A stretch of 64,000 nt of DNA from an uncultured Erysipelotrichia bacterium (GCA_964593055.1 CAZQIG010000006.1:28668-92667), one strand, 5' to 3'; shown: positions 9,674 through 64,000, counted from the first letter of the stretch. Translations and numbers: made by a program. Notes: generated by a model not told the origin, from the sequence alone.

Positions 9674-9757
9674 GCGGGTGTGGCGGAATTGGTAGACGCA
9701 CTAGACTTAGGATCTAGCGCCTTTGGCGTGGGGGTTCGACTCCCTTCACCCGTACCA
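9674..9757 (+). tRNA. tRNA-Leu (anticodon UAG)
   Basis: A cloverleaf can be drawn. The acceptor is GCGGGTG/CACCCGT. The anticodon stem CTAGA/TCTAG carries the loop CTTAGGA, which puts TAG at the anticodon position. A long variable arm CGCC-TTT-GGCG is present, the T-loop is TTCGACT and the 3' CCA is encoded. Confidence 0.85.
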
Positions 9758-13598: not shown

Positions 13599-14543
13599 TT
13601 ATTTTTGAATATACCATCTATATATTTTTATGCTGAATGTCAAAATGAATGCAAATACAAATAATTGAATAATTGTATCATTCCATAAAATTAAGAAATG
13701 ATAATCAAAAAGTAGCAGTGGTTCATTTTCTAGTTCTATTGCAATAGATATTGCTTTGATTGATATGCTTATTGATGCAAATAAAGCCACAGTGTAGTGG
13801 AATTGTCGAACAAAATCAGTTCTAGTATAAATAAATATGTCACTTTTTCTCTTGTAAAATATTTTTGAGGTCACATTTGACATGTAAGTTTCACCAGGCT
13901 TATATGATTTTGTAAAAACAATTTTTGTTACAACAAATAAGTAGAATACTAAAAAAAATAATGAGCTGAATAAGATTGCATTAAATACATATTTTTCTGC
14001 ATTGTTCAAAATGATAGTTCGGCTTGTTTCTACTACAACGTTTAATTGAGTGAATAATATAAAAGGCAAGAAATAGCCTAGGGATATCAGTACTCCAATT
14101 ATCAAATAATATTCAATATTGAGATTCGTAATATTATTATGTTTGTAGTCTAAATATAGTACTGTTGTAAAGATGGAGATAATAAAAATAAAAACAAATG
14201 CTAAGCCATGCATAGGAGTAACTATTAGTGATGAGAAAATTGAAAAATTAATTTTTAATATTACAAAGCAAATGATTTGAATAATCAATATCCTTATTAT
14301 TTGAAATTTTTCTATTTTTGAATTATAACAAAACCAATATATAAAACTACTTATAGAAGTTGTGAAAGCAATGGAAATTAAGATCATAAAAAAAATTTTT
14401 GGTAAAATAAATTTTTCTGGAATAAAGAAACAAATTATGCATATCATGATGGTAAAGCTGAATCCAACGTGAATTTGAGTTTTGTCACATGAGTGAACAC
14501 TGCTTAGTATTGATTTTTTAGTAATTTCAACTAATTTTCTCAT
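13599..14543 (-). CDS. Polytopic membrane protein, function unknown (the only gene on the - strand inside the element)
   Basis: 314 aa with eight or more hydrophobic helices. Confidence 0.4.
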   Translation of the reverse strand: MRKLVEITKKSILSSVHSCDKTQIHVGFSFTIMICIICFFIPEKFILPKIFFMILISIAFTTSISSFIYWFCYNSKIEKFQIIRILIIQIICFVILKINFSIFSSLIVTPMHGLAFVFIFIISIFTTVLYLDYKHNNITNLNIEYYLIIGVLISLGYFLPFILFTQLNVVVETSRTIILNNAEKYVFNAILFSSLFFLVFYLFVVTKIVFTKSYKPGETYMSNVTSKIFYKRKSDIFIYTRTDFVRQFHYTVALFASISISIKAISIAIELENEPLLLFDYHFLILWNDTIIQLFVFAFILTFSIKIYRWYIQK

Positions 14544-14819
14544 ATAATACCTCCTAAAATCAATTCACTTAAATTATAACAAAATTAAAAAACGATATAA
14601 AGCAACATTATCACTCAATAATTATAAAACTATCAAATAGTTTTTATAATATAAATAAAAACTGAATAAATAAATTTTATATTTGTATGTGGATATGAAA
14701 TTGTAGAAATAGGTTACGTGTTCCTTTGTAAAAAGCACTTGACACATATGTATGATTATTTATTATTAAGATATGAAAAATATGTTATAATAAAACTAAT
14801 TAGTGATACAATTTGAGAG

Positions 14820-15695
14820 GTGATACTTATGAATATTATTAGAAAAATATTATTGATATTAATATCAATATGTTCAATAATAAGTATTTCTACACTTATT
14901 TATATTAGTGCATTTCAAAAGGTAAAAATAGGATTTGTGGCAGTAGAACAAACTGTTCAAATTCGTGATTATAAAAATTATAATACTTATGCTGATTTTA
15001 TTGAAGAATTAGATTTTGATGAGTTGATGTTAGCATACAGTATTGAAGAAGATAGTTATGATTACATTAACTTAGCAATTTCTTTTGATCGAGAAGTAAA
15101 TTTTTATAATCATAATCATCCTGAATACTCGATAGATGAGTTCTTAGAAAAGTTTGGCGATCAAAAAATTCAAGATGGAGCATTAGTTCATTTTGTTTAC
15201 TATAAAGAAATAGAAAGTGAACAAGTGGAAATTATAAAATATGAAAGTTTTGAAGAAAAAGATGAGACACTTGATAGCGGTAGTACAGAAATCAAAGTTG
15301 AAGGTATTGATGGTAAAACTATTACACCTAAGATAGAAGTTTATCGTAATGGAAAATTAATAGATACTATTATAGGAGAAACAGAAAGAATTGAACCAGT
15401 TAATGAAATTGTTTTGGTGGGAACTAAATTGTCAAGAAACTATAGTAGTTCATCAACTTCAAGTAATAGTAGCTCAAGTCACTCAACTACTAATAATTCT
15501 TCAAATGACTCTAATAATACTTCTCCATCCAATGAAGCTACGAAACCTGTTGAAAAAACTTGGTACTTACGTGTGACACCTTTTGGAGGAACTCAATATG
15601 TTGATTCTACGTATACTAGTGAAAGCTCATGCATATCTGCTGGTAAAGCATGGGGAAATAGCAATTCCGGTTCGTGGGGTTGCAAAGATTGGTAA
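14820..15695 (+). CDS. Secreted or membrane-anchored protein with a G5-like domain and a Ser/Asn-rich linker
   Basis: The N-terminus has a TM/signal segment. A G5-type block follows (IKVEGIDGKTITPKIEVYRNGKLIDTIIGETERIEPVNEIVLVGTK), then an S/N/T low-complexity linker, then a Cys-containing C-terminal module. Confidence 0.45.
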   Translation: MILMNIIRKILLILISICSIISISTLIYISAFQKVKIGFVAVEQTVQIRDYKNYNTYADFIEELDFDELMLAYSIEEDSYDYINLAISFDREVNFYNHNHPEYSIDEFLEKFGDQKIQDGALVHFVYYKEIESEQVEIIKYESFEEKDETLDSGSTEIKVEGIDGKTITPKIEVYRNGKLIDTIIGETERIEPVNEIVLVGTKLSRNYSSSSTSSNSSSSHSTTNNSSNDSNNTSPSNEATKPVEKTWYLRVTPFGGTQYVDSTYTSESSCISAGKAWGNSNSGSWGCKDW

Positions 15696-15700
15696 TAGTT

Positions 15701-15728
15701 AAACGGTATCAGTTGATACCGTTTTTAT
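15701..15728 (+). terminator. Intrinsic terminator
   Basis: AAACGGTATCAgttgaTACCGTTTTTAT. Confidence 0.5.
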
Positions 15729-15751
15729 ATTGAATATAAAAGGAGTAAAAT

Positions 15752-17683
15752 ATGAAAAAACAAGTTAAATACTTAGGAATTATTGTAATGCTTTTTGGAT
15801 TATTAAATCTAGAAAGTATTTTTTATGTAAAAAAAATTGAGGCACAAAACTTTGATACATATAAGATACCTAATTATAGTCAAGAAATAATTGATTTAGA
15901 AAAAGAAGAAGAAGATGTATATTACGCCAATGGTGAATTAAATGCATCTCCTGGGGAAATTCATTCTACAGAAGTTGAGTTACAAAACTTTGTAGATAAA
16001 TATGCTGATACTGATAATAATGGCACAGTAATTATTAAAAATGCAACTAGAGCAGGTAATACTTTAACAGTTGTATTTGAAGGTGATTACGTAGGGACAG
16101 GAAATGTTTCAAATTTTGGATTGGTTTATAAATTTAATCAATATACTAGCGGTAGGACAGCATACGCTAGATATTATATTGATGGTGTCTACTCACTATG
16201 TATTGAACCAGGAAGAAGTGTTAGTCCTGGAACATCATATAATGTTAGTGCAGTAAATGGAGATTTAGTAGTAGATTGGAGTGCAGGATACTTTGCTAGT
16301 TATCATTCTAAAACATCGGTATTAACTGCTAATGAATCTAAAAGATTGTCGAGAATGGTCTATTATGCAAGTACTAAAGTAGATTTATCTAAAAGTAGTG
16401 ATTTTGAAAAAGCATTACGTTTAATAGCTACACAGTATACAACTGATATAGATGTTACTTTTACATACAATAACAGTGAATATAGCAATATTGAAGATGA
16501 AGTGTCTATTTTACATAAGTATGCTGATGAATTTGAAATTGCACCTGTAATTGGTAATATGCCTAATGAGTTTTTAGTAGGAGAAACAATAAATTTAAAT
16601 ATTAACAATGCTAGTCAATGGACTCATATTAAAAGTACCGATAGTAACTTGAAGCTAGAAAGAACTAGTGATGGTATAAAAATAACACCTTTAAATAAAA
16701 GTGCTAATCTTTCACAAATAAAATTTACCAAAGGAAATGAAATTTCATCAAAATATAAGTTGTTTAGTAATAGTAATTCTCAAGATATGATTGCTTATAC
16801 TGAGTCAGATCCATTTAATTATTTTATGGATATAAATGTTAGGGAGGCTAGTGGAAGTCTAGAAGTTTATAAGACTGATACTATAGGTAATAAATTAGAA
16901 GGAGTTGAATTTCAAATACTAGATGGATTTTATAATGATGTAAGTAATTTAGTAACAAATGAAGAAGGATATGCAAGATTAGATAAGCTTCCACTAGGAA
17001 TTTATTATTTAGGTGAAATAAAGACATTAGATAATTTGATACTAAATAAAAATTTATTTCCTTTTGAGATAGATGAGGATGGTGCAAAGATTGTTATTAA
17101 TGTCTCGAATACAGAATATGCTAATTTAACAATATTTAAAACTGATGCAAAAACAAAGGAAAAGCTAGAAGGAGCCAAATTAAAACTAAAGTATTTTGAA
17201 GATGAAACAGGTAATTATGAATCATATTACCATGGACTAAGTAATGAATATTTGAGTGCCAATGCGATAGCATACGTTTTAACAGGTGAGTATGATGATA
17301 ATAGTTATCACATCATTGAAGATGAAACAGGAGTATTTCTTGTTGAAGATTCTACTGGAAACAAAGAACACATTGACAAGTCATATTTTGATAAAAAATA
17401 TGATAATGAATATATAACAACAGTTGATGGAATAAACCTCAACATACCTATTGGCTTATATCAAGTTTGTGAGATTAAAGCTCCAAATGGTTATTTATTG
17501 AGAAATGATTGTCTGGAATTTGAAGTTTTGGAAGGAGAAAATGAAATCAAGATTGAATTTGATAACTACGAGATAGAAACATTAGTTAAAACAGGTAGTA
17601 GAAATGAATTATGTATTTATTTTCTTGTAATAATAGTTTTCTTATTAATGAAGGCGGTAAATCGTTTTTACAAGACATGCTAA
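15752..17683 (+). CDS. Surface adhesin-like protein with two CnaB-type domains and a C-terminal sorting-signal-like tail
   Basis: The N-terminus is a signal peptide. Two CnaB-fold blocks are present (LEVYKTDTIGNKLEGVEFQILDG...LPLGIYYLGEIKTLDN and LTIFKTDAKTKEKLEGAKLKLK...YQVCEIKAPNGYLL). The C-terminus reads LVKTGS, then a hydrophobic stretch, then a basic tail (KAVNRFYK). Confidence 0.55.
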   Translation: MKKQVKYLGIIVMLFGLLNLESIFYVKKIEAQNFDTYKIPNYSQEIIDLEKEEEDVYYANGELNASPGEIHSTEVELQNFVDKYADTDNNGTVIIKNATRAGNTLTVVFEGDYVGTGNVSNFGLVYKFNQYTSGRTAYARYYIDGVYSLCIEPGRSVSPGTSYNVSAVNGDLVVDWSAGYFASYHSKTSVLTANESKRLSRMVYYASTKVDLSKSSDFEKALRLIATQYTTDIDVTFTYNNSEYSNIEDEVSILHKYADEFEIAPVIGNMPNEFLVGETINLNINNASQWTHIKSTDSNLKLERTSDGIKITPLNKSANLSQIKFTKGNEISSKYKLFSNSNSQDMIAYTESDPFNYFMDINVREASGSLEVYKTDTIGNKLEGVEFQILDGFYNDVSNLVTNEEGYARLDKLPLGIYYLGEIKTLDNLILNKNLFPFEIDEDGAKIVINVSNTEYANLTIFKTDAKTKEKLEGAKLKLKYFEDETGNYESYYHGLSNEYLSANAIAYVLTGEYDDNSYHIIEDETGVFLVEDSTGNKEHIDKSYFDKKYDNEYITTVDGINLNIPIGLYQVCEIKAPNGYLLRNDCLEFEVLEGENEIKIEFDNYEIETLVKTGSRNELCIYFLVIIVFLLMKAVNRFYKTC

Positions 17684-52227: not shown

Positions 52228-52971
52228 ATGAAAGCACAGCTATATAGAATCAATATTGGAAGAGCTAAATATATTACACTTGTATACTTTATGGTACTAG
52301 CTATTTATGATTCTATTTTAATTTTGAGTAATAACGATATTTTTTTTGGTGATCGATATTTTTATGGGAACTATCTATTTATCCAATCAGGGTTAATAGG
52401 CCATTTTGCAATTTTCTTCTTTTTTCTTACATTTCCAATAATATTTTATATTCTATTTTTTAGGCATCTTAGTACAGACAGTAAAAACAATATTTTGTAT
52501 ACACAAATATCAAGGATGAAAATCGCTAAATATATTTATCGTAACTATATCGTTATTTCTTTATCTACTTTTATTATTATGATGATGTTTCAAATTGTAA
52601 ATATATTTATTGTTTGGACGCTGTTTTATATAGGAGGACTAGAGTTAGATATTCCATTGGAATCTATGTATATTTTCAAGAAAATTGTAATTCACACTTT
52701 AATGTTTTCAACAGTTATTACTTTATATAATACTTTGTTTACAGGGGTATATTTATTAAAGATTAATCAATATATTTCTTTGGCTGTGACTATAGGATAT
52801 GTCTATATCGCACAAATGGTTTTTAATTTAGGAAATATTTTACAGCCATTTACAGAATATTCTTCAGAGTATGTTTTAAAAAACTTTTCATCATTCGCAA
52901 TTTTCAATTTACTTTTAATAATAATGTTCATAATTTATAATGTAAATAAGAAAGACTTTTTAAATGAGTAG
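52228..52971 (+). CDS. Polytopic membrane protein (ABC-2 / immunity-type permease)
   Basis: 247 aa with six TM helices. Confidence 0.45.
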   Translation: MKAQLYRINIGRAKYITLVYFMVLAIYDSILILSNNDIFFGDRYFYGNYLFIQSGLIGHFAIFFFFLTFPIIFYILFFRHLSTDSKNNILYTQISRMKIAKYIYRNYIVISLSTFIIMMMFQIVNIFIVWTLFYIGGLELDIPLESMYIFKKIVIHTLMFSTVITLYNTLFTGVYLLKINQYISLAVTIGYVYIAQMVFNLGNILQPFTEYSSEYVLKNFSSFAIFNLLLIIMFIIYNVNKKDFLNE

Positions 52972-53677
52972 AAGACAGATCATAAAATATTTAATATTAT
53001 TATGTAGTATTGAAGTAATTATAGCAATTATTTCAAATTTTTCCATTTATAGTTCTAAACTAGGTGAATTTGATAAAGTATTATCTGTAGTTACTTCAGG
53101 GATAGGCTATAATTCTTTTCTTTTTTATTCTTTCATTGTAGTATTATGTTATTTGATTCTGATAAACAAATCTTTAATAAATGATAATAAAATTGTAATA
53201 AGATATGGACGAAAAAAAATAAATGTTAATAACTTAAAAAAAGTTGTTATGTGGGCTATAATCTTTGGTTTTTCAAATATAATGGGTACTTTTTTTACTA
53301 TAGCAATTTTGTACGGTCATACTTATTATAGTATTGAATATTTATTCTTTGTTTTGGTTAATTTCTTATTTTACAGCAGTATCCTTTGTGTTTGGGGACT
53401 CTTGCTGATAATGGTGAAAAGGTATACTGGATCTATACAATCCATTTTAATACTAATTATATCCAGTAGCTCTATTTATATTTCTTTAAAATATAGTGAA
53501 CACTATTATTTGTATGAATATTTAAATTTTACTAGGTTTTATTGGGCTATGCAGAATGACATTACTATTAGCATTAACATGATAAACTTAGCTTATCATT
53601 TATCATCATTGTTTTTAATAATATATGTACTATACTCATTTTCCAAAAAGGTGGTTTATACACATGATTATTACTAA
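52964..53677 (+). CDS. Polytopic membrane protein
   Basis: 237 aa with six TM helices. Its start overlaps the preceding gene. Confidence 0.45.
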   Translation: MSRRQIIKYLILLCSIEVIIAIISNFSIYSSKLGEFDKVLSVVTSGIGYNSFLFYSFIVVLCYLILINKSLINDNKIVIRYGRKKINVNNLKKVVMWAIIFGFSNIMGTFFTIAILYGHTYYSIEYLFFVLVNFLFYSSILCVWGLLLIMVKRYTGSIQSILILIISSSSIYISLKYSEHYYLYEYLNFTRFYWAMQNDITISINMINLAYHLSSLFLIIYVLYSFSKKVVYTHDYY

Positions 53678-54332
53678 AGATAGAGTAATTCTAATAATAA
53701 TGATTCTATTGATAACATTTGTACAGGCACTTTCACATGGGTTTTTCACAGATTCGAATGAATTTATATTTTTGACTAAATTGTTCATTGAATCTCCCAT
53801 AATTATGTCATCACAATTAATAATGTTTGTTGTTTTGATAATATCATTTAAGGGATATTTAAAAAGTATGTTTTTAAATATTGAATTACTAAACTTTGTT
53901 AGACAAGATAGAATTTATAAAGTATTAATAAAATATTTATTAAGGTTAGTAGTTTCATTGATAATATATCTTGCCTTACATTTAGTGCTATATCAACTTT
54001 TTTGTAATATATTTGGATATAGTGAGGGAATTATTTTCTTTAACAATATAACTTTTGTAGAATTGATTAATTACAATTTATGCATTTTACTTTATCTTCT
54101 GTCTTCTAATCTCTTACTATGTTTATTTCGAACACATATTTTTGATGTAATTATAATTGCTGCTATAATATTAGAAAACATCAGAGTAATTAGTACAAAT
54201 GCTGACTTTAGTATAATACCATTGTGGAATGCTAATATAATCGAGCTTCCTTATTTAATAATTATGATTATATCGCTTATTGTAGCAACTTATTTTTTTA
54301 TAAAAAAAGGAGATAAATTAAATGACTATTAA
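53625..54332 (+). CDS. Polytopic membrane protein
   Basis: 235 aa with six TM helices. Confidence 0.45.
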   Translation: MYYTHFPKRWFIHMIITKDRVILIIMILLITFVQALSHGFFTDSNEFIFLTKLFIESPIIMSSQLIMFVVLIISFKGYLKSMFLNIELLNFVRQDRIYKVLIKYLLRLVVSLIIYLALHLVLYQLFCNIFGYSEGIIFFNNITFVELINYNLCILLYLLSSNLLLCLFRTHIFDVIIIAAIILENIRVISTNADFSIIPLWNANIIELPYLIIMIISLIVATYFFIKKGDKLNDY

Positions 54333-54957
54333 AGTAGAGAATTATAGTAAAACAATAAAAAAAAATCAAGTTTTAAAGAATATTAATGCTACTTTTGAAA
54401 GTGGTAAAATTTATGGTTTAATTGGACATAATGGAAGTGGTAAAACAATGCTGTTAAGAGCTATAACAGGTTTAATATGTCCAACTAAAGGTAAAATATA
54501 TTTAGATAACAAGGAAATGTTTAAAGATTTTGATATTATGCCAGATGTTGGTATTATTATCAATAATCAAGAAATGATTCCTTCCCTTACTGCCAAAGAA
54601 AATATGGAATATTTACGCAAAATTAACCTTAAAGTTCAACCTGAAAGGATTTTGGAGGTTTTAAAAAGAGTTGGCTTAGAAAGACAAATAAATAATAAGG
54701 TGAAAAATTTTTCATTAGGTATGAAGCAACGTTTAAACATTGCACAAGCTATTTTTGAAGATCAAAAAGTTATTTTGTTAGATGAACCTACAAATGCTAT
54801 AGATAGTGAAGGAATTATAGATATATTAGAGTTGTTGAAAGAACTGAAAAGTGAAGATAAAATAATTATTATCGCAACACATGATACAGGATATTTCAAA
54901 GAAGTGTTTGATGAAATTATCAAATTAAAGGAGGGAGAACTTGTTGAAGTTTCTTAA
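54322..54957 (+). CDS. ABC transporter ATP-binding protein
   Basis: GHNGSGKTM, LSLGMKQRLNIA and ILLDEPTNAID. Confidence 0.8.
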   Translation: MTIKVENYSKTIKKNQVLKNINATFESGKIYGLIGHNGSGKTMLLRAITGLICPTKGKIYLDNKEMFKDFDIMPDVGIIINNQEMIPSLTAKENMEYLRKINLKVQPERILEVLKRVGLERQINNKVKNFSLGMKQRLNIAQAIFEDQKVILLDEPTNAIDSEGIIDILELLKELKSEDKIIIIATHDTGYFKEVFDEIIKLKEGELVEVS

Positions 54958-55555
54958 GAGTTGGATTTTAACTATAATTTTAATATGCATACTAGTTGTT
55001 TCTTTGTTTGTGTATTATAATAATATGATTTTATCTTATAGTGATAGGAACATCATCGATGAATTTTATGCTGAATTTGAAAATATGACACTTATAGTTG
55101 GTGAAGATATATCAAAAGGTTTTTACGATATTCAGTTAAATGATGGTACAATAATATTGCATAACGATATTTTGGAATATCGTAATTATGTTAGAAGTGT
55201 TCCTTTAAATAATGGAGATAGTTTAAAAATTGAGGGTCAAGCTGTAATTAGAAATCATCAAAAGCGTGAAAGAACAGATGATGTTACAGAATCAGGTTAT
55301 TATCTTATTGAAGAGGATCTTTTCACTCTAGATGATGAGTTAGGAAATACATATAGCGTTTATAGTGAGTCTCTAAATTGTGCTTTTTCACTTATAACAT
55401 TTCAAAATTTTGGATTAATCTTTTACAGCGATATTTATGAACAATACTATTCAAATGGTTATGCAAAGGTTGTTCCATTTACTACTAAGGATGCAGTACT
55501 TTATATAAAAAATGATAATGAATGTCAATTAACTACATCTAGGGGGCTTAAATGA
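54941..55555 (+). CDS. Membrane-anchored hypothetical protein
   Basis: An N-terminal TM helix and a soluble domain. Confidence 0.35.
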   Translation: MLKFLKSWILTIILICILVVSLFVYYNNMILSYSDRNIIDEFYAEFENMTLIVGEDISKGFYDIQLNDGTIILHNDILEYRNYVRSVPLNNGDSLKIEGQAVIRNHQKRERTDDVTESGYYLIEEDLFTLDDELGNTYSVYSESLNCAFSLITFQNFGLIFYSDIYEQYYSNGYAKVVPFTTKDAVLYIKNDNECQLTTSRGLK

Positions 55556-56010
55556 TAAGAAATATAATTTTAGTATTAATGATAGCTTTTCTCATAATAA
55601 TGTACTTTGTTTATCCACTTCCTAGTGAATATGCATCAAATATTTCTTATGTAAAAAAAGACTTTAATATCATTCAAGAGGAACAAAATGACTATTTTGT
55701 ACTGAAGTATAATGAAGACTACTCTTTGTTTATCACAGCAGATCTAAGCAATAATATCAAGATTAGCGTTGCTATATTAGATGCATATACAGGAAATTTA
55801 ATAAAAGAGCTTGCTTCAGACATTACATATGAGCTATATCGTGAAAAAGAATTAATTAATTATGAATTTTTATATGACGATTCAAAAAATTGTGTAAGTG
55901 AAGGATTAGAATTGAAAATTATTTATAATGATGATTTTGAAAATCCAAACACAATAAATATTGGCCTAGATTTAGATGATGATTTTTGTGGAAATGAGGC
56001 AAATTTATGA
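55552..56010 (+). CDS. Membrane-anchored hypothetical protein
   Basis: An N-terminal TM helix. Confidence 0.35.
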   Translation: MIRNIILVLMIAFLIIMYFVYPLPSEYASNISYVKKDFNIIQEEQNDYFVLKYNEDYSLFITADLSNNIKISVAILDAYTGNLIKELASDITYELYREKELINYEFLYDDSKNCVSEGLELKIIYNDDFENPNTINIGLDLDDDFCGNEANL

Positions 56011-56465
56011 AAAAAAATTTACAATATATAGCTATTGTATTTTCAATTGTATTATCAGGATGTAATAGAAGTCCCGAAGAGGAACTAGACTATGGAAACG
56101 AATTTTCAGATATGGGTGAAGTTGAGCATGTGGTTGATAATAATATTAGTGTAATTTTTCACAAAAAATTTGATACAGAAAAATATGAGCTTAAGATAGC
56201 ATATTTTGATAGAAAGACTAACAAAAAGGTAAAGGAATTTGATTTTTTAATAGTTGATACACTTGGAGATGATGAGTTATTATATTCAATAAATGGCGGA
56301 GGGTTAACTGTTAAGCCAATCTATAATGCTAATACACAATGCTATACTACAGAAATGGATATTACTATTGCATATGCTAAAGACAATAAACTATTTGAGA
56401 CAAAAGATATAACAGTTGATCAAACAAATGATGGATATCCATTTATATATTGTATAGATAAATAA
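56007..56465 (+). CDS. Lipoprotein
   Basis: Lipobox LSGC. Confidence 0.45.
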   Translation: MKKNLQYIAIVFSIVLSGCNRSPEEELDYGNEFSDMGEVEHVVDNNISVIFHKKFDTEKYELKIAYFDRKTNKKVKEFDFLIVDTLGDDELLYSINGGGLTVKPIYNANTQCYTTEMDITIAYAKDNKLFETKDITVDQTNDGYPFIYCIDK

Positions 56466-57007: not shown

Positions 57008-58180
57008 TTGAAGAAAGATAGTAAAAAGATTTATGGATATATACGTGCATCTACAGAAGATCAAAAAAAGCATGGATATAGTGCTGAGGAACAAAAACGT
57101 AAAATAAAAGGCTATTGTGAATTACACTATGATAGTTATGAGCTAATCATAATTGATGATTCAGGATACTCTGCGTGGAAGAAGAACGTAAATAGACCAG
57201 GAATGACAAAAGTGATGAAAGAGGTAGATGAAATTGATATTTTTATCTTTTATGACATTGATAGGTTTTCAAGATAAATTTTAGATGGTCTAACTTTTTT
57301 TACAAAACTTCAATCAGCTAATGTTAAGATAATTTCATTAGTAGAAGAATTGAATTTAGATACAGCAGATGGAATGGCATTTGCACAGATTAAACTTGTG
57401 CTTTCACAATATAAATCATCCAAGATATCAGAAAAAACTAGATTTGGACTTTTAGGAAAAGCAAAAAAAGGTCAGTACCCCTTTGGTAACAAACCACTCA
57501 TAGGTATTTCAAAGGACGAGAATGATATCTTATATTATGATGATGAAATTCATATTGTACGTGAAATTTATGAGTTGTATGTTAATTGCGAATATAGTTC
57601 TGAATTCATAGCGTACTTATTTAGAGAAAAATATCCGCAGTATAGTTGAGGAAAGAACTATCCACTTGTATTGCTTAGAAAAACTATTTATAGAGGCTAT
57701 ATTATGATTTCTGATGAAAAAATTTATTTAATTGAGCCAATATTTAGTGAGGAAGAAATTGAAAATTTAAAAAGTATTCAAAATAATGAAAGGTTTATTA
57801 CGAACAATAACTATAAGTATAAAGTCAATGTTTATTATAAAAACAAAAAGATGCATGTATATTCAAAAAGTAAAAAAATGAGTAATGGTAAAATAAAGAA
57901 TTATGCATATTATTATGCACGTGAAAATGGAGAGAAGATATTGAATATACCTGAGAGCAAAATCGACAAAGAAGTTTTAAAACATCAAGTCATAGCAAAA
58001 CGTAAAAATATTGAAGAAAGATTGAAAACCCTAAATCATGCTGATAAGTTATTGAAACAAGGAAAGATAACAAAAGAAAAGTATGCCTATATTGCGAAGA
58101 TCAATTCTAAAAATAAAAATAGCACAATGAAAATAATTGTTAAAAGCAAAGATTTGATAGTTATAGAAGAAAATCAGTGA
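57008..58180 (+). pseudogene. Serine recombinase pseudogene in three frame fragments, paralogue of 34003..35163
   Basis: The first fragment has IYGYIRASTEDQ. Fragments 2 and 3 align with the intact recombinase (KAKKGQYPFGNKPLIGISKD... and KTIYRGY...KNYAYYYAREN). There is an in-frame stop at 57278 and a stop/frameshift near 57650. Confidence 0.6.
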
Positions 58181-58207
58181 TGTCCATTTTGTTTAACAAT
58201 TCTATTA

Positions 58208-58236
58208 TTGACAGACTTTGTTTGAAATAATATACT
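58208..58236 (+). promoter_or_regulatory. Consensus-like promoter TTGACA, 17 nt, TATACT
   Basis: The hexamers and spacing are near consensus. It reads into the IS remnant, towards the rSAM cluster. Confidence 0.3.
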
Positions 58237-58251
58237 CATGTTATAAAATAA

Positions 58252-58407
58252 CAATACTTATTTAAAAAGCTGATTAAAAGTAATTATAAATCCATTGAGG
58301 AATTAGAAGTGGATGCAGAGTTTGTAAATAACTATAATTACTTTAGAACACATGCGACACTTAATTATCGATTACCTGCTGGATATAGGTTAAATAATAT
58401 TAGATAG
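58252..58407 (+). pseudogene. C-terminal relic of an IS3-family (DDE) transposase
   Basis: The open frame with no start codon reads ...SIEELEVDAEFVNNYNYFRTHATLNYRLPAGYRLNN. This matches the IS3 OrfB tail (IEELE...YI.YYN..R.H..L.Y.SP..Y). Confidence 0.35.
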
Positions 58408-58605
58408 AATAAAATATCAACTAATTACTTGAAAGTTTAGAATTGCACAATTGTAGCATTTTTAATTTGAATTATTCTTTGTAATGTTTCATTTGGTTCG
58501 CCTACTATGATTTTATTTTATCATAGAATTTCTTGATTACTTTATTTTAATTAATTCAATATTGCTAAATTCACAAAATATTATATATTAAAAAGAGGGG
58601 GAAGT

Positions 58606-59772
58606 ATGAAAAGAGAAATTGAATGGTATACACAAGAATATTTAAGAGTAAATAATAATTCCAAGTATGAAAGAAAAAATAAAATATCTAAAGAAAACTT
58701 TGTCAGAATGATAGAGGATAATACTTGTATAAATGGAAGTCAAGCCTTAAATACACCTGTAAAAATTGAATGGCACATCACAAAAAAATGCAATTTAAAA
58801 TGCAAGTTTTGTTATTCTTCTGCTATTGAAAAAAAAGTTGATGAATTAAGTAGAAATGAAATTGATAAAGTTATCAATGATATTCATAAAAATAATGTAT
58901 TAGAAGTTCAAATTGAAGGAGGTGAGCCTTTTTTACATTCGGAACTTACATACATATTGAAAAGATTGAAGGAAAATCATATTAGGGTTAGGTTATTAAC
59001 AAATGGAACTGTGGTAAATGAAAGCGTCTTAAAAACTGTAAAGGAATTGTTTGATGAAAATGATGTATTACAAGTCAGTCTTCATGGTCACGATAGTGAA
59101 ACTCATGATAATATTGTTGGACTAAAAGGTTCATTTCAAAACGTTATCAGATTCTTTGAAAAAACAGAAGAACTTAATATAGCAACTAGAGTGAGTTGTG
59201 TTGTATCAACTAAAAATATTCAGTATTTGAGAGAAATGATAGAATTACTTTTAAACTATAAAAATATTGTAACATTTGTTACACAACCTATAATACCTAT
59301 TGGAAGAGCTGAGAAGAAAGAAACTGTTCCCAAACATGATTTACTGAAAGCTTATTATGATTTGAGAGATCTATCTAATTCTATCCATCTAGCATTGTTG
59401 TTAGGTCATGCTTATGAAATAGAGTTATTAGCAGAGTACATGCTAAAATTTGGTAAAAAACAAGACCGCACTTATTGTGCTGCAGGAAGAGCAAGGCTAC
59501 ATATTGATGAGTCAGGAAATATATATCCATGTCATTTTTTGGTCGATGAGGAATTTCATTTAGGAAATATAAGAAAAGATAGTTTTGCTAAAGTTTGGCA
59601 TGGCGAAAAAATCCAGATTATTAGAAATGGAAGAAGTGAAGATAATTATTGTTCAAAGTGTAAATTGAAGAAAAATTGTACAAGAAAAGGGTTATGTACC
59701 TCATATGTAAACGGTGGAATAAACAATAAGCCGATAAACTGTAATATTAATGAAAATATGATTATTAAATAG
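58606..59772 (+). CDS. Radical SAM / SPASM-domain enzyme, the first RiPP maturase
   Basis: The CxxxCxxC motif (CNLKCKFC) is at residues 62-69, after a 55-aa N-terminal extension. A Cys-rich SPASM-type C-terminus follows (CAAGRARLHIDESGNIYPCHF...CSKCKLKKNCTRKGLC). Confidence 0.8.
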   Translation: MKREIEWYTQEYLRVNNNSKYERKNKISKENFVRMIEDNTCINGSQALNTPVKIEWHITKKCNLKCKFCYSSAIEKKVDELSRNEIDKVINDIHKNNVLEVQIEGGEPFLHSELTYILKRLKENHIRVRLLTNGTVVNESVLKTVKELFDENDVLQVSLHGHDSETHDNIVGLKGSFQNVIRFFEKTEELNIATRVSCVVSTKNIQYLREMIELLLNYKNIVTFVTQPIIPIGRAEKKETVPKHDLLKAYYDLRDLSNSIHLALLLGHAYEIELLAEYMLKFGKKQDRTYCAAGRARLHIDESGNIYPCHFLVDEEFHLGNIRKDSFAKVWHGEKIQIIRNGRSEDNYCSKCKLKKNCTRKGLCTSYVNGGINNKPINCNINENMIIK

Positions 59773-59781
59773 GGAGGAAAT

Positions 59782-60843
59782 ATGCAAAATATATTAGCTG
59801 ATTGGTTAGATAATCATAATAAAACTAGAATTTTAACATCATCTGAAACTACATATGATAAAATGGTGCATGATAAAAAATGGAACAAAATGTATTTAGA
59901 TAATTCGAAAGGAATTTTTAGACCACTAACTCCACAAGAACCGATAAATTGGCAAAAAAAAGTATTCATCGAACTATATAAAGATAAAATATCAAAGTGT
60001 GGGATAAATCCAGTAGTACTTGATATAGGATCAGGTTCAGGATATCCTTCAATCAGTGTTTGTGATATTGCCAAAAAGGTTTATTCAGTAGATTTTTCAA
60101 AAGAGTTACAAAAAATTGCTAAAAAAAATATTTTGGAATTTGAAAAAAAGAATATTGAAGTCGTGCATGCGAGGGGTGAGAATCTACCTTTTGAAGATAA
60201 TGTATTTGATTGTGTAATTGCTTCACATTTTATTGAATTTTCAAAAGATGCGAACAAGTGCATGCAAGAAATTTCTAGAGTTTTAAAAAAAGGAGGATCT
60301 TTTGTATCGCTTACTAGTAATTGGGATATGGCTTTGAATTCTAGTTTTGGATATTTAGATGGTGAAAGAATTTTATATCCTGCATTAAGAGCAGAAAAAG
60401 TTTCGATTAAAGGTGTAGAATATTTAAAGTATAGAGTGTGTAGTAAGGAACCGATGCTTGAAAATACATACTATGTACTTCTAGGTGATAATGAATATAT
60501 TGATGTGTTAGTAAAAATCATAAATAATGGTTATTTGAATCTTGCAATCGAAACGTTAAACAAAATTGAGATCAAACAGATTGATAATGCAAGGTGTCAT
60601 CAATATAATGAGAAAAGCATTGTAAATTTATTTAATGATAATAATTTTGCGATTGAATCAATGCATGGGGTTAGAATTCCTATATATGAGTTTATAAAAA
60701 AATTGATGGATAATAAAGACTTTGATTTTAGTTTTTTTGAAAAAAACTATGAATTATTATCAAAAGAAATGATAAACATCGTGAGAACAACTTCACCAAT
60801 ACTTGGATTTGATATGTTCATAAGTTCAATAAATAATAAATAA
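59782..60843 (+). CDS. Class I SAM-dependent methyltransferase
   Basis: Motif I is VLDIGSGSGYPS and the post-I motifs are VYSVDFS and FDCVIAS. It sits between two rSAM genes. Confidence 0.7.
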   Translation: MQNILADWLDNHNKTRILTSSETTYDKMVHDKKWNKMYLDNSKGIFRPLTPQEPINWQKKVFIELYKDKISKCGINPVVLDIGSGSGYPSISVCDIAKKVYSVDFSKELQKIAKKNILEFEKKNIEVVHARGENLPFEDNVFDCVIASHFIEFSKDANKCMQEISRVLKKGGSFVSLTSNWDMALNSSFGYLDGERILYPALRAEKVSIKGVEYLKYRVCSKEPMLENTYYVLLGDNEYIDVLVKIINNGYLNLAIETLNKIEIKQIDNARCHQYNEKSIVNLFNDNNFAIESMHGVRIPIYEFIKKLMDNKDFDFSFFEKNYELLSKEMINIVRTTSPILGFDMFISSINNK

Positions 60844-60846
60844 CTG

Positions 60847-62151
60847 ATGGATGGTGAGAAAATGAACTTAAGATTAAACAAGAGGGCACAGCTAATTGAA
60901 GGAGAAGATAGTGCTGTTTTAAACATTATCAAAAAAAATTACAATTATACTTATAAAATAAATAAATCTTTTTATAAAATTTTAATTTTTTTACTGACAA
61001 ATAATGATTATAAAAAAATTATTAATGAATTAGTACAAAGAAGCGATATGGTGAGTGCTAAATTTCTTGAAGAGATTAATGAAATGATTGATAAAGAAAT
61101 TTTAATTGAAACTGAGGAATTAGTTTATGATCAATATCAAATCAAAAAATATGATAGCCATGTGGGTATTTCAAGAATATTTTTTGAAGTCACAAATGAT
61201 TGTAATATGAAGTGTATCCATTGCTATAATGAACGCAATCAAGATAATAAGTATCTGGATTTAAATATTTTAGAAAAATTATTAATGGAAGCACATGAAT
61301 TAGGAGTTTGTTTTGTAGATGTTACTGGAGGAGAAGCAACTCTACATCCACAAATTAGAGATATTTTACTTCTTTTTACGAAGTATGGTATGTTTATAAA
61401 TCTTTATACAAATGGATTATTATTAGATGAAAAATTTTTACTTTTTTTAGAAAAAGAATGTAGACTATCAAGCATAATTTCAAGTATAGATAGTATAAAT
61501 CCTGAGGTTTACAATAACTTTAGAAAAACAGAAAAAGCTTATGAAGTAGTAGTTGATAATTTAAAAGTAATCAAAGATATAGATATTGATTTACGTATTA
61601 ATGTTACTATACATGAAGAAAATATAGGTGAAATTGTAGAAATTGCGAAATATGCAAATGATATATTGGGGGCTGAGTCAGTAGTAATTGCTCCAATAGT
61701 ACAGGCTGGCAATGGTAAGTTAACATCTACTGCAGAAATTGATAAAAATGAAATCTTAGATGCACAATTTGAAGCATATAAGAAGCTTGATTTTGAGACA
61801 ATTAATAATATAAACCTTGGAACAAATACAAGGTGTGGAGTATTTGAAAGCATGATTTATTTCTCACCTGAATTCGAAGCTTATGTTTGTCCGACACTTA
61901 CGAAATACGAGAGTGATGAATTTATTTTAGGAAAATACCCTAAAGACAATCTCTTAAAAATTTTTAGAAGTCTTTTGGATAGAGAACATAATTATGTTTG
62001 TGAAGAATATGATAATTGTAAATATTCAAAACTTTGTATGAGTGGTTGTAGAAGTAGAGCATTCTTAGAAACGAGTAAAATTAATGGTATTGACAAATAT
62101 ATGTGCGAATTTTACGAGCATTTATCAAAAAAATATCCGAACCTTTTCTAA
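60847..62151 (+). CDS. Radical SAM / SPASM enzyme with an N-terminal RRE-like (PqqD-like) domain
   Basis: The N-terminal 110 aa have a winged-helix-like pattern (KSFYKILIFLLTNNDYKKIINELVQRSDMVSAKFLEEINEMIDKEILIE). CNMKCIHC follows, then the SPASM Cys cluster (C...CPT...CKYSKLCMSGCRSRA). Only 60 nt separate it from the precursor gene. Confidence 0.8.
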   Translation: MDGEKMNLRLNKRAQLIEGEDSAVLNIIKKNYNYTYKINKSFYKILIFLLTNNDYKKIINELVQRSDMVSAKFLEEINEMIDKEILIETEELVYDQYQIKKYDSHVGISRIFFEVTNDCNMKCIHCYNERNQDNKYLDLNILEKLLMEAHELGVCFVDVTGGEATLHPQIRDILLLFTKYGMFINLYTNGLLLDEKFLLFLEKECRLSSIISSIDSINPEVYNNFRKTEKAYEVVVDNLKVIKDIDIDLRINVTIHEENIGEIVEIAKYANDILGAESVVIAPIVQAGNGKLTSTAEIDKNEILDAQFEAYKKLDFETINNINLGTNTRCGVFESMIYFSPEFEAYVCPTLTKYESDEFILGKYPKDNLLKIFRSLLDREHNYVCEEYDNCKYSKLCMSGCRSRAFLETSKINGIDKYMCEFYEHLSKKYPNLF

Positions 62152-62212
62152 TTTTGTCACATGCTTTTCCTTGTTATGTCAATTAAGAAGAATGTTGAAG
62201 GGATGATTAATT

Positions 62213-62368
62213 ATGAATAATAAAAAAATTGATAAAGAAATAGAAAAATTAATATCTGATTTAAAGATTGAAATTACTCCTGAAGTTTTAGAAGTAGTAG
62301 AAATAAGTCCTGATATTCCATCTGGTGGAACTAGTCATTGTTCAGGAACAAGTACAAGTGTTTATTAA
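62213..62368 (+). CDS. 51-aa RiPP precursor peptide candidate, not in the supplied ORF track
   Basis: Translated by hand: MNNKKIDKEIEKLISDLKIEITPEVLEVVEISPDIPSGGTSHCSGTSTSVY, then stop. The RBS is GAAGGGA. The leader-like part is acidic and helical and ends in GG. The core is Ser/Thr/Gly-rich with one Cys. Confidence 0.55.
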   Translation: MNNKKIDKEIEKLISDLKIEITPEVLEVVEISPDIPSGGTSHCSGTSTSVY

Positions 62369-62447
62369 ACAGTTTAAGTAATATAGATTAAGCACTTAGA
62401 TATAATGTGTGAAAAGCATGTGCTAAAGTTAAAGAAAAGGGGATTAT

Positions 62448-63596
62448 ATGGTTTTTTGTGAAATAACATTATTGTGTAATTTGAATTGTGACTTTTGCTA
62501 TAATATAAAGTCAGAAAGTTATTTAATGAATAACAAGATATTTGAAAGAATACTTGATATATTGAAAGAAACAGATTTACTACTCCATATTACAGGTGGA
62601 GAGCCAACGATACATCCTAAATTAAAGGAATATATTTCTTTGTGTAAGAAAAACAGTTTAAAATATAGTATTAGTAGTAATGGTACTAGTGTTTCAAAAA
62701 TTATTAATGTTTTAGAAAAATATAAGCCAATTTCAATACATTTAAGTCTTGATGGTAATGAACAATATCATGATAATATAAGAAGTTCAACTGGACTATA
62801 TAAAAATAATATGCAAATTATTAATTGTGCTAATATCAATGGTATAGAAGTTGGGGTTCAATTTACTGTAACGAGTAAAAATGTTTCTATGCTTGAATCT
62901 GAAGTATTAAACATGTGCAATAATTTGAATGTAAATACAATTAAAATTACCAAGAACTGTTATATAGGAAATGAAATATTTGATAATGATATTATTAATG
63001 CTGTTAAATCGACTCACGGTAATAATAAATATAATATTAATGTATGTACTGAAGTAATGAATAATCAGCAACTTAAATATCATGTAAATAAATTAATTAA
63101 TAGTCAATCAATGATTGTGTTTAAGCCTAATGGATACATTCATCCGTATTTTGGTTTATCCTCTGACTGGGATTATATTCATGTAGATGATATTAACGAT
63201 ATCTCTTTGATTGATAAGTATTTTAAATATATTTTTTTGATAATTTTGTCTAAAAATAATGAAGTTTTTAATTTTGAAACAGTTGATTTTAATAAAGTTC
63301 TTTATGATGGATATATTGATTTAAAAAATAAAAAAGCAAAATACAAACTCAATTCAAGATACATAATTAGATATGATTTTGTTTCGTATCTATATGACTG
63401 CGAAATGAAAAGTGTTTTAAAAATAAGTAATGTATTAGGAGCAGTTCTAGATTATTGCAGAGAGGGATGGAGAGATGATTTAGAAATACTTTATTATTTA
63501 ATGCAAAAATGTTATGATGTAGACTATGAAGATGTACAAAAAATATTAAAAATTTTGCGATATAAAAACTTTATTACAACGAATTTAATTGATTAG
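62448..63596 (+). CDS. Radical SAM enzyme (third) with no clear SPASM cluster
   Basis: CNLNCDFC is at residues 10-17. HITGGEPT is the SAM-binding GGE motif. Confidence 0.7.
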   Translation: MVFCEITLLCNLNCDFCYNIKSESYLMNNKIFERILDILKETDLLLHITGGEPTIHPKLKEYISLCKKNSLKYSISSNGTSVSKIINVLEKYKPISIHLSLDGNEQYHDNIRSSTGLYKNNMQIINCANINGIEVGVQFTVTSKNVSMLESEVLNMCNNLNVNTIKITKNCYIGNEIFDNDIINAVKSTHGNNKYNINVCTEVMNNQQLKYHVNKLINSQSMIVFKPNGYIHPYFGLSSDWDYIHVDDINDISLIDKYFKYIFLIILSKNNEVFNFETVDFNKVLYDGYIDLKNKKAKYKLNSRYIIRYDFVSYLYDCEMKSVLKISNVLGAVLDYCREGWRDDLEILYYLMQKCYDVDYEDVQKILKILRYKNFITTNLID

Positions 63597-63606
63597 GGGT
63601 TGTGAA

Positions 63607-64000
63607 ATGATAAAAATTAAGAATATGACATTTGCTTACGAAGAAAAAAATATTTTTGAAAATTTGGATTTAGATATCAAAAATGGTGAAAAGGTTGCAC
63701 TTTTAGGTCATAATGGTGCAGGGAAAACAACTTTAGTTAAGTTAATTGCTAAGTTATTAAAACCACAATATACTGATAAATTTAATACTTACGATAGTAT
63801 TTCTGTAGTTTTTAATAGTAATCAATTATATGATGATTTAACTGTGTTAGATAATTTGAAATTGTTTGCTCACTTGTATAAAAAGAATGTTAGCGATGAT
63901 TTTATTCAAAAATATTTAATACAAGTTGGAATACAAAAATATATTGATGCAACTGTTGGTTCACTGTCTACTGGATATAAACAGAGAGTTAATATTGCTA
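63607..64000 (+). CDS. ABC transporter ATP-binding protein, 3'-partial, probable exporter or immunity component of the cluster
   Basis: Walker A GHNGAGKTT. No N-terminal C39 peptidase domain is present. Confidence 0.75.
   Translation, partial: MIKIKNMTFAYEEKNIFENLDLDIKNGEKVALLGHNGAGKTTLVKLIAKLLKPQYTDKFNTYDSISVVFNSNQLYDDLTVLDNLKLFAHLYKKNVSDDFIQKYLIQVGIQKYIDATVGSLSTGYKQRVNIA

Follow-up and report, generated by a model that had tools for sequence, protein, structure and literature searches.

The locus analyzed here raises the question whether a short open reading frame (ORF) between two radical SAM (rSAM) genes is a genuine gene and, if so, whether it encodes the precursor of a RiPP that is matured by the enzymes surrounding it. 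The ORF is located towards the end of the window, i.e., the whole stretch of 64,000 nt that was analyzed, in an operon-like array on the + strand comprising rSAM A, a methyltransferase, rSAM B, the peptide gene, rSAM C and an ABC ATPase. The features of this array are as follows:

58606 to 59772, + strand: rSAM A, a radical SAM/SPASM enzyme of 388 aa (Pfam Radical_SAM and SPASM)
59782 to 60843, + strand: class I SAM-dependent methyltransferase of 353 aa (Pfam Methyltransf_11/25)
60862 to 62151, + strand: rSAM B, 429 aa, with an RRE-like N-terminus of ~100 aa, a radical SAM core and a SPASM-like C-terminus with seven Cys
62197 to 62203, + strand: Shine-Dalgarno-like GAAGGGA, 9 nt before the ATG of the peptide gene
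62213 to 62368, + strand: probable precursor peptide gene, 51 aa plus stop, with the ATG at 62213 and the TAA ending at 62368
62448 to 63596, + strand: rSAM C, 382 aa (Pfam radical SAM, alignments)
63339 to 63593, + strand: C-terminal domain of rSAM C, ~85 aa (alignments, AF2 secondary structure, weak PqqD matches)
63607 to 64000, + strand: ABC transporter ATPase, running off the end of the window (Pfam ABC_tran)

The ORF itself is exactly as it had been given in the preliminary description, since translation of the + strand returns the same coordinates and the same product, MNNKKIDKEIEKLISDLKIEITPEVLEVVEISPDIPSGGTSHCSGTSTSVY, and the GAAGGGA proposed there as ribosome-binding site (RBS) is found at the position listed above. 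This does not apply to the statement that the ORF exactly fills a gap of 61 nt. The gap between the stop of rSAM B (62151) and the start of rSAM C (62448) comprises 296 nt, and the ORF is flanked by spacers of 61 nt before and 79 nt after it, i.e., 61 nt is merely the length of the spacer ahead of the ORF. Likewise, the term unannotated is correct for the supplied track with its cut-off of 60 aa, whereas the same 51-aa product has already been called, without a name, on the NCBI contig JAHMFL010011176.1 and in four Logan assemblies. A cut-off of this kind conceals the key gene of the cluster.

The length of the ORF alone is weak evidence for a gene. Complete ORFs of 51 aa or more were obtained in 450 of 5000 shuffles of the 296-nt gap and in 381 of 5000 random 296-nt sequences of window composition, i.e., in 8–9% of such sequences; the DNA around the peptide ORF has a GC content of 26–27%. 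This frequency speaks for the reading that the ORF has arisen by chance, its conservation reflecting an RNA or DNA element, a reading that is considered here together with that of an unmodified accessory or regulatory protein. Both have to be measured against the pattern of conservation among relatives of the peptide.

Relatives were found in metagenomes by three kinds of search. A word-indexed search of 5.8 billion proteins returned three homologs besides the query, an exhaustive scan with a profile against 1.84 billion cluster representatives yielded three further peptides, and a scan of metagenome DNA added two more. The nine distinct homologous peptides comprise 45–56 aa, and the DNA hosting them has a GC content of 26–58%. 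The viral contigs and plasmids searched contained no relative of the peptide, and its motif is absent from all 80 unrelated rSAM loci obtained in a GTDB scan with the rSAM B alignment. Conservation within the family is bipartite, with a variable N-terminus, a near-invariant block (L..L....PE[VI]LEVVE[VI]SPELPSGGxSHCS) and a variable tail. The stretch E-[VI]-S-[PA]-[ED]-[LI]-P-S-G-G-x-S-H-C-S, with T, G or S at x, is common to all nine peptides; the leader pattern upstream of it, L..L....P-E-[VI]-L-E-V-V, is looser, and H-C-S is followed either by G and 5–10 variable residues or by V-x-x and the stop. In the copy of the window, three segments can be assigned on this basis:

62279 to 62329, + strand: conserved C-terminal half of the leader, P23-G39, PEVLEVVEISPDIPSGG (alignments; mostly synonymous codon differences between loci)
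62333 to 62344, + strand: S41-H42-C43-S44, invariant in nine of nine family members
62345 to 62365, + strand: variable C-terminal tail, GTSTSVY in this copy, differing between members

The family alignment also changes the picture of the peptide that had been derived from a single copy. An acidic N-terminal segment had been proposed, which agrees with the nine D/E as opposed to five K/R among residues 1–39, and the lone Cys (C43) and the terminal Tyr are both present in this copy. However, neither the Ser/Thr-rich tail nor the terminal Tyr, which had been stressed as core features, is conserved across the family: the tails of the other members read GTSVCP, GSRMGSR, GSQLPSGDGAM, GNRLTTK, VSS, VST, VGS and VAS, so that the part beyond H-C-S comprises 3–10 aa and varies in sequence as well. 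Of the proposed core of 12 residues, the S-H-C-S part is constrained, while the remaining tail differs in length and sequence, and the alignment suggests that the functional core corresponds approximately to S-H-C-S rather than to all 12 residues. These four residues are presumed to contain the site or sites of modification, and the leader half P23-G39 is presumed to combine a recognition sequence for RRE domains with a linker. The proposed two-part layout was recovered insofar as conservation of the leader/core type is seen; the invariant block, however, spans the proposed boundary, and the cleavage site after G-G remains a guess for this reason.

At the nucleotide level the loci are much less alike, with an identity of 54–81% over the 21 most conserved codons, and most codon differences in the conserved block are synonymous. 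Between loci L005 and L006, 13 of these 21 codons differ and every change is synonymous, and Ser codons switch between AGY and TCN from locus to locus with the amino acid unchanged. A purine-rich RBS is located at the matching position in all seven homologous peptide genes examined. Due to the low nucleotide identity combined with mostly synonymous differences, the AGY/TCN switches at Ser positions and the RBS, the alignments identify the peptide ORF as a protein-coding gene under purifying selection at the protein level. Retention of the amino acids in this manner argues against a chance ORF or a conserved nucleic acid element, as do the RBS in every locus examined, the layout of leader and core with the invariant part at the C-terminus, the lack of an Rfam match at the peptide gene and the lack of a conserved RNA structure 3′ of the gene across the loci compared. 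A chance origin or an unmodified accessory protein is thus regarded as extremely unlikely, despite the share of shuffled gaps that reach this length.

Strong stem-loops were observed directly 3′ of the peptide gene in L005 (8480–8503) and L006 (682–731), with z values of about −3 compared to shuffles. A stem-loop following a precursor gene is what is expected for attenuation of a transcript encoding precursor and enzymes. No equivalent stem-loop follows the peptide gene in the window, L008 or L096, and an attenuator was therefore rejected as a conserved feature. Within 58100–64000 of the window, no terminator-like sites were found and promoter-like sites occur at chance level.

The preliminary description had suggested looking for conservation of the small ORF next to orthologous rSAM clusters. 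This is indeed observed, as the nine peptides adjoin orthologs of rSAM B and/or rSAM C; the synteny count takes in loci with enough flanking sequence, and all of these place the peptide beside B and/or C. Related clusters without the small ORF or with a frameshifted copy, which had been named as the finding that would speak against it, were looked for, and no frameshifted copy or cluster of this kind was found. Each locus contains one copy of the peptide gene, and the conserved gene set consists of rSAM A, a class I methyltransferase, the RRE-rSAM-SPASM enzyme B, the peptide, rSAM C and an exporter. The order A-methyltransferase-B-peptide-C-exporter is found in the window with L001, a public contig that is identical to the window and extends past base 64000, as well as in L005, L008 with L009, and L096. 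In L006, the order is peptide-C-(82-aa ORF)-MFS-A-methyltransferase-B; in L092, L093 and L099 the peptide is followed by B, and in L095 B precedes the peptide. Throughout, rSAM A adjoins the methyltransferase, and each of the five full clusters has an adjacent exporter, which is of ABC-2 type here and an ABC half-transporter or MFS protein in the others. The identities among orthologs amount to 41–62% for A, 43–60% for the methyltransferase, 35–52% for B and 19–40% for C, i.e., the enzymes are far more diverged than the core of the peptide.

An expanded relative of the cluster is present in L093 (10001–20153) at 58% GC. It additionally contains a B12-binding rSAM C-methyltransferase (493 aa), a second rSAM/SPASM enzyme and a protein of 752 aa in which two regions are HprK/ScmC-like. 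The C-terminus of the peptide in this locus reads SHCSVST. The seemingly split rSAM B of this locus is due to a scaffold gap (a run of N).

The linkage of a small ORF to maturases across genomes and a leader/core type of conservation under purifying selection are general characteristics of rSAM-RiPP systems, and both are found here. The homologs with their invariant core, the synteny and the purifying selection support the proposal that the ORF encodes a genuine RiPP precursor belonging to the surrounding rSAM operon. On these comparative grounds we consider this reading probable, and the same confidence extends to the general scheme of maturation outlined further below; the reaction assigned to each enzyme, which relies on analogy, is much less certain.

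Neither any of the three rSAM enzymes nor the methyltransferase reaches the cut-off of a curated NCBIfam model, and since every curated model stays below its threshold, no reaction can be transferred by homology. For rSAM A, the best NCBIfam match is the MftC model (138 bits as opposed to a cut-off of 265) and the nearest solved relative is SkfB (E 8e-16); its orthologs are 41–62% identical across six loci, and it has no RRE of its own. The methyltransferase consists of a Rossmann domain (residues 67–190) and a conserved C-terminal part of ~160 aa without a family match. Its PDB matches are generic and include the lanthipeptide methyltransferase LahSB (1.3e-8).

The ORF of rSAM B has its first ATG at 60847, corresponding to a form of 434 aa; orthologs and gene callers start at MNLRL (60862). 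Alignment of the orthologs revealed seven invariant cysteines (C330, C348, C385, C391, C397, C401 and C420), a SPASM-type set that is missed by Pfam. The best NCBIfam matches of the enzyme, both below cut-off, are the tungsten-cofactor maturase and ScmF. A scan with rSAM B as single protein against one genome each of 185,579 GTDB species detected no ortholog, and a GTDB scan with the B alignment gave generic rSAM matches only, with most best segments at 21–32% identity.

rSAM C contains a CX3CX2C motif (C10/C14/C17) and a family-specific KPNGYIHPYFGL motif. Its orthologs share just two other conserved Cys, C171 and C337, and no SPASM or auxiliary-cluster Cys set is evident from Pfam or from the ortholog alignment. 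The best NCBIfam match is NirJ, again below cut-off, and the AF2 core matches SuiB and SkfB. The family is isolated: in a profile search of 5.8e9 sequences the orthologs scored 559–622 bits and the next match 117 bits. A first homolog search at E ≤ 1e-10 had returned the query alone, so that the orthologs required a profile search, and plasmids searched with rSAM C yielded generic rSAM matches only. By sequence, the nearest solved relatives of the three enzymes are SkfB, BlsE, SuiB, CteB and PqqE, with E values from 1e-9 to 1e-16; BlsE is a cytosylglucuronate decarboxylase.

The preliminary description had referred to the upstream rSAM enzyme as RRE-containing, and an N-terminal RRE-like domain in rSAM B is moderately supported by three observations. 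Firstly, a profile of the B N-termini aligned by hhalign with PF05402-annotated domains over 84 columns (probability 71%, E 3.7e-5). Secondly, the AlbA and SkfB models and the sequence of the SkfB structure align to rSAM B from about residues 27–41 onward, which means that the N-terminal domain is included. Thirdly, the AF2 model of rSAM B (pLDDT 79) finds CteB and SuiB as best PDB matches over ~435–440 columns. An RRE of the kind expected for a maturase of rSAM-RiPPs is thus seen at the N-terminus of B, with the domain itself modeled at low pLDDT; for the RRE-like domains of this cluster, the pLDDT is only 29–61. For rSAM C, the indications of a PqqD/RRE-like C-terminal domain are suggestive. 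Its sole Pfam match is PqqD (E 0.14), hhalign against PF05402-annotated domains gave 56 columns in register (E 1e-3, probability 22%), and AF2 predicts three strands followed by three helices at low pLDDT. In L006 (82 aa) and L093 (94 aa), the same domain is encoded by an ORF of its own, and a second recognition domain is probably located at the C-terminus of rSAM C. Sequence profile searches of the PDB with the putative RRE domains and an hhalign comparison of that of B with that of C gave nothing significant.

With regard to known systems, the cluster resembles the sacti- and ranthipeptide pathways (CteA/CteB, AlbA-subtilosin, SkfA/SkfB, PapB) in architecture, judging by its domains, while failing their family models. 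Shared features are a short precursor whose leader is acidic and whose core contains a Cys, an enzyme with N-terminal RRE, radical SAM domain and 7-Cys SPASM domain (B), and an adjacent exporter; moreover, CteB and SuiB are the best structural matches of B, and the AlbA and SkfB models align to it over nearly the full length. In contrast, there is only one Cys here and no obvious conserved acceptor outside S-H-C-S, three different rSAM enzymes and a methyltransferase are present, and one of the rSAM enzymes lacks an auxiliary cluster, its RRE-like domain being C-terminal. While B shows the RRE-rSAM-SPASM architecture and the auxiliary-cluster cysteines that characterize the sacti- and ranthipeptide enzymes, the curated families do not include it: the AlbA, SkfB, StsB and PapB models score 41–94 bits with A, B and C as opposed to cut-offs of 300–850.

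Mycofactocin (MftA/MftB/MftC) is another point of comparison, with MftC as top match of rSAM A, a free-standing, MftB-like PqqD-like protein in two loci, a similarly tiny invariant core, and a copy in the window that happens to end in V-Y. However, the conserved end of mycofactocin is G-V-Y, whereas S-V-Y is found here and the orthologs end in CP, SR, AM, TK, SS, ST, GS or AS, and exporters are present here. An assignment to mycofactocin was rejected because of the low MftC score, the lack of MftB/D/E/F in the cluster and the unconserved V-Y. A broader reading in the same direction would be that the peptide is the precursor of a cofactor, a redox shuttle or a metal-binding molecule (PQQ-, mycofactocin- or methanobactin-like) that is carved from S-H-C-S, and not of a peptide with antimicrobial or signaling function. 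A core that remains invariant in hosts of 26–58% GC is unusual for bacteriocins and seen more typically in cofactors derived from peptides. Moreover, His and Cys are well-known ligands of metals, and the tail is variable and presumably dispensable; the MftC match of rSAM A and the free-standing RRE in two loci, as in the case of MftB or PqqD, fit this reading as well. Nevertheless, we regard it as unlikely, since exporters accompany all five full clusters, several clusters adjoin genes or gene remnants of recombinases or transposases, the family is extremely rare instead of lineage-wide, and neither MftB/D/E/F-like nor PqqB/C-like genes are encoded in the cluster, to which the lack of conservation of the V-Y end has to be added.

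The invariant H42-C43-S44 is formally also an aromatic-X-X motif as in the triceptides (HaaB, HtkB, YhhB), although this is a formal match only. In HAA, HNR and HTK motifs, rSAM/SPASM enzymes cross-link the C2 of His to the C-beta of residue 3 (PMC11499958). Among the fold matches of rSAM B, the triceptide synthase ChlB (9gm3) ranks 45–48, and the top 25 NCBIfam matches include no cyclophane-synthase model. Precursors of triceptides usually contain repeated motifs and are processed by a single rSAM enzyme.

A further likeness is to the HXS system (HxsA-D), in which an S-H-x-S motif is likewise the target of several rSAM enzymes and a small partner. A study from 2026 reports an undefined modification of +8 Da (+C/−4H) on S-H-R-S-S of HxsA, for which the His and the two outer Ser residues (first and last) are essential (PMC13128918). 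Of the HXS systems surveyed, more than 99.8% comprise four proteins, namely HxsA-D (PMC13128918), and HXS therefore has no methyltransferase. It could be imagined that the peptide is the effector of an HXS-like defense, in which paired rSAM enzymes modify S-H-x-S-S of a secreted protein that blocks the entry of phage DNA. The invariant S-H-C-S, several rSAM enzymes with a small partner domain, the mobile island and an exported product would be compatible with this. However, the HxsB model scores 84 bits with A as opposed to 268, and the HxsC model 39 bits with C as opposed to 370, PADLOC gives generic viperin-like rSAM matches only, and the viral contigs contain no relative of the peptide. The substrates differ as well: HxsA is larger and contains five repeats as well as a domain that binds peptidoglycan, in contrast to a 45–56-aa peptide with a single H-x-S, and the enzymes here are non-orthologous. 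A defense function of this type is therefore considered very unlikely, and the resemblance of S-H-R-S-S to S-H-C-S serves as a lead only, because the Hxs models are far below cut-off and the substrates are different.

ScmE and ScmF of the SynChlorMet cassette (ScmC/ScmE/ScmF, NCBIfam) are among the better model matches of A and B, and a ScmC/HprK-like protein occurs in the expanded relative L093; the scores of 86–122 bits nonetheless contrast with a cut-off of 400, and a literature search found no mention of this cassette. A thiopeptide precursor (NF033400/TIGR03892) was rejected as non-specific, with 14.6 bits as opposed to a cut-off of 30 in two of seven members (E 0.016–0.025). Pfam detected no YcaO, dehydratase or pyridine-synthase genes in the cluster.

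For the favored reading of the peptide as RiPP precursor, the following scheme can be proposed. The binding of the leader by a recognition domain is established for RRE-dependent rSAM maturases, namely PqqD/PqqE, SuiB, CteB and AlbA. Here, the acidic leader, and especially PEVLEVVEISPDIP, would dock on the PqqD-like domains, which are N-terminal in B and C-terminal in C, and the domain of C may also serve rSAM A, as A has no such domain. A flexible S-G-G linker would place S-H-C-S into the active sites; S-G-G might be either this linker or a cleavage site. rSAM B would most likely introduce an intramolecular cross-link, either a thioether via the single Cys (sacti-/ranthi-type) or a three-residue cyclophane of His-X-Ser, whereas a second oxidative step might be carried out by the MftC/anSME-like SPASM enzyme rSAM A. 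rSAM C, with one conserved extra Cys (C171) and no auxiliary cluster, may perform simpler H-abstraction chemistry, e.g., epimerization. The methyltransferase would methylate the product before it is exported by the neighboring transporter.

Information on the last steps comes in part from L001, where the ABC ATPase is followed by two ABC-2-type permeases beyond the window. After a gap of ~560 nt, and ~2.6 kb beyond base 64000, a secreted protein of 531 aa is encoded (14161–15756). It comprises a signal peptide, a long linker rich in D/E/N/K and, at the C-terminus, a papain-like Peptidase_C39_2 domain (27 bits as opposed to a cut-off of 24, with the motifs GNCV and GGHTVVVDGY). This protein is a candidate peptidase for cutting behind the invariant G-G. 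The G38-G39 pair at the leader end recalls the double-glycine leaders of bacteriocins processed by PCATs; however, leader positions −4 and −7 are Pro here and not hydrophobic residues, and the exporters are half-transporters of 546–585 aa without C39, an MFS protein or of ABC-2 type. A C39 domain is absent from the exporters of L005, L008 and L096, a C39 peptidase is missing from four of the five full clusters, and a separate C39_2 peptidase is found in this locus only; no dedicated leader peptidase is shared by the loci. Removal of the leader at or near G-G is plausible, although cleavage directly after this invariant pair is uncertain.

The surroundings of the cluster contain traces of mobile DNA. 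Upstream of it, a serine recombinase (Resolvase; window 57008–58180) is split into three ORFs in succession (89, 99 and 169 aa) and probably represents a pseudogene, and a 32-aa ORF, VDAEFVNNYNYFRTHATLNYRLPAGYRLNNIR (58309–58407), resembles the C-terminal remnant of a DDE transposase. A resolvase is located upstream of the cluster in L008, and IS66-like genes lie downstream in L096. On account of these genes and remnants, the cluster seems to travel on mobile DNA. Directly upstream of the recombinase remnant, a block of seven genes (52228–56465) may represent a second transporter or immunity set. It encodes an ABC ATPase (54322–54957), four proteins without a Pfam match, a 152-aa protein with a lipoprotein-type signal (56007–56465) and a second 152-aa protein without a Pfam match (55552–56010). 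With regard to the host, a lipoteichoic-acid-synthase-like (LtaS) protein (453–2375), the GC content of 26% and a single tRNA (Leu, 9674–9757) in 64 kb point to a low-GC Gram-positive-type organism. Eight of ten large ORFs of the window that were tested match no NCBIfam model at E ≤ 1e-10.

A literature search for the motif, SynChlorMet, the accession numbers and clusters with three radical SAM enzymes returned nothing relevant. The cluster therefore apparently represents an undescribed and rare rSAM-RiPP family that in several loci has recombinase or transposase genes as neighbors. The invariant S-H-C-S target, the set of three orphan rSAM enzymes and a recognition domain that can be fused or free recommend this family for experimental work. 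A more far-reaching idea, put forward tentatively and with more doubt than confidence, is that S-H-C-S is the substrate of an undescribed radical chemistry, in which three rSAM enzymes and a methyltransferase generate a compact, cross-linked and methylated His/Cys/Ser moiety. Such a moiety could be a heterocycle with a His-Cys or His-Ser bridge or a warhead that binds metal, and by analogy it may possibly be related to the +C/−4H modification of S-H-R-S-S in HXS. If this idea were true, a new RiPP class would result that includes an rSAM enzyme without auxiliary cluster and with its recognition domain at the C-terminus.

Pathways for rSAM-based RiPPs are among the main sources of both novel peptide chemistry and antibiotic leads, and uncharacterized families of this type are numerous. 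The present family offers a clean and testable system, with a substrate of 45–56 aa, an invariant target of four residues, a methyltransferase, a recognition domain that is either fused or free, and three rSAM enzymes that are distant from one another and cannot be placed in any curated family. The structure of the product would give functions to three orphan rSAM families and could clarify the undefined modification of S-H-x-S motifs.
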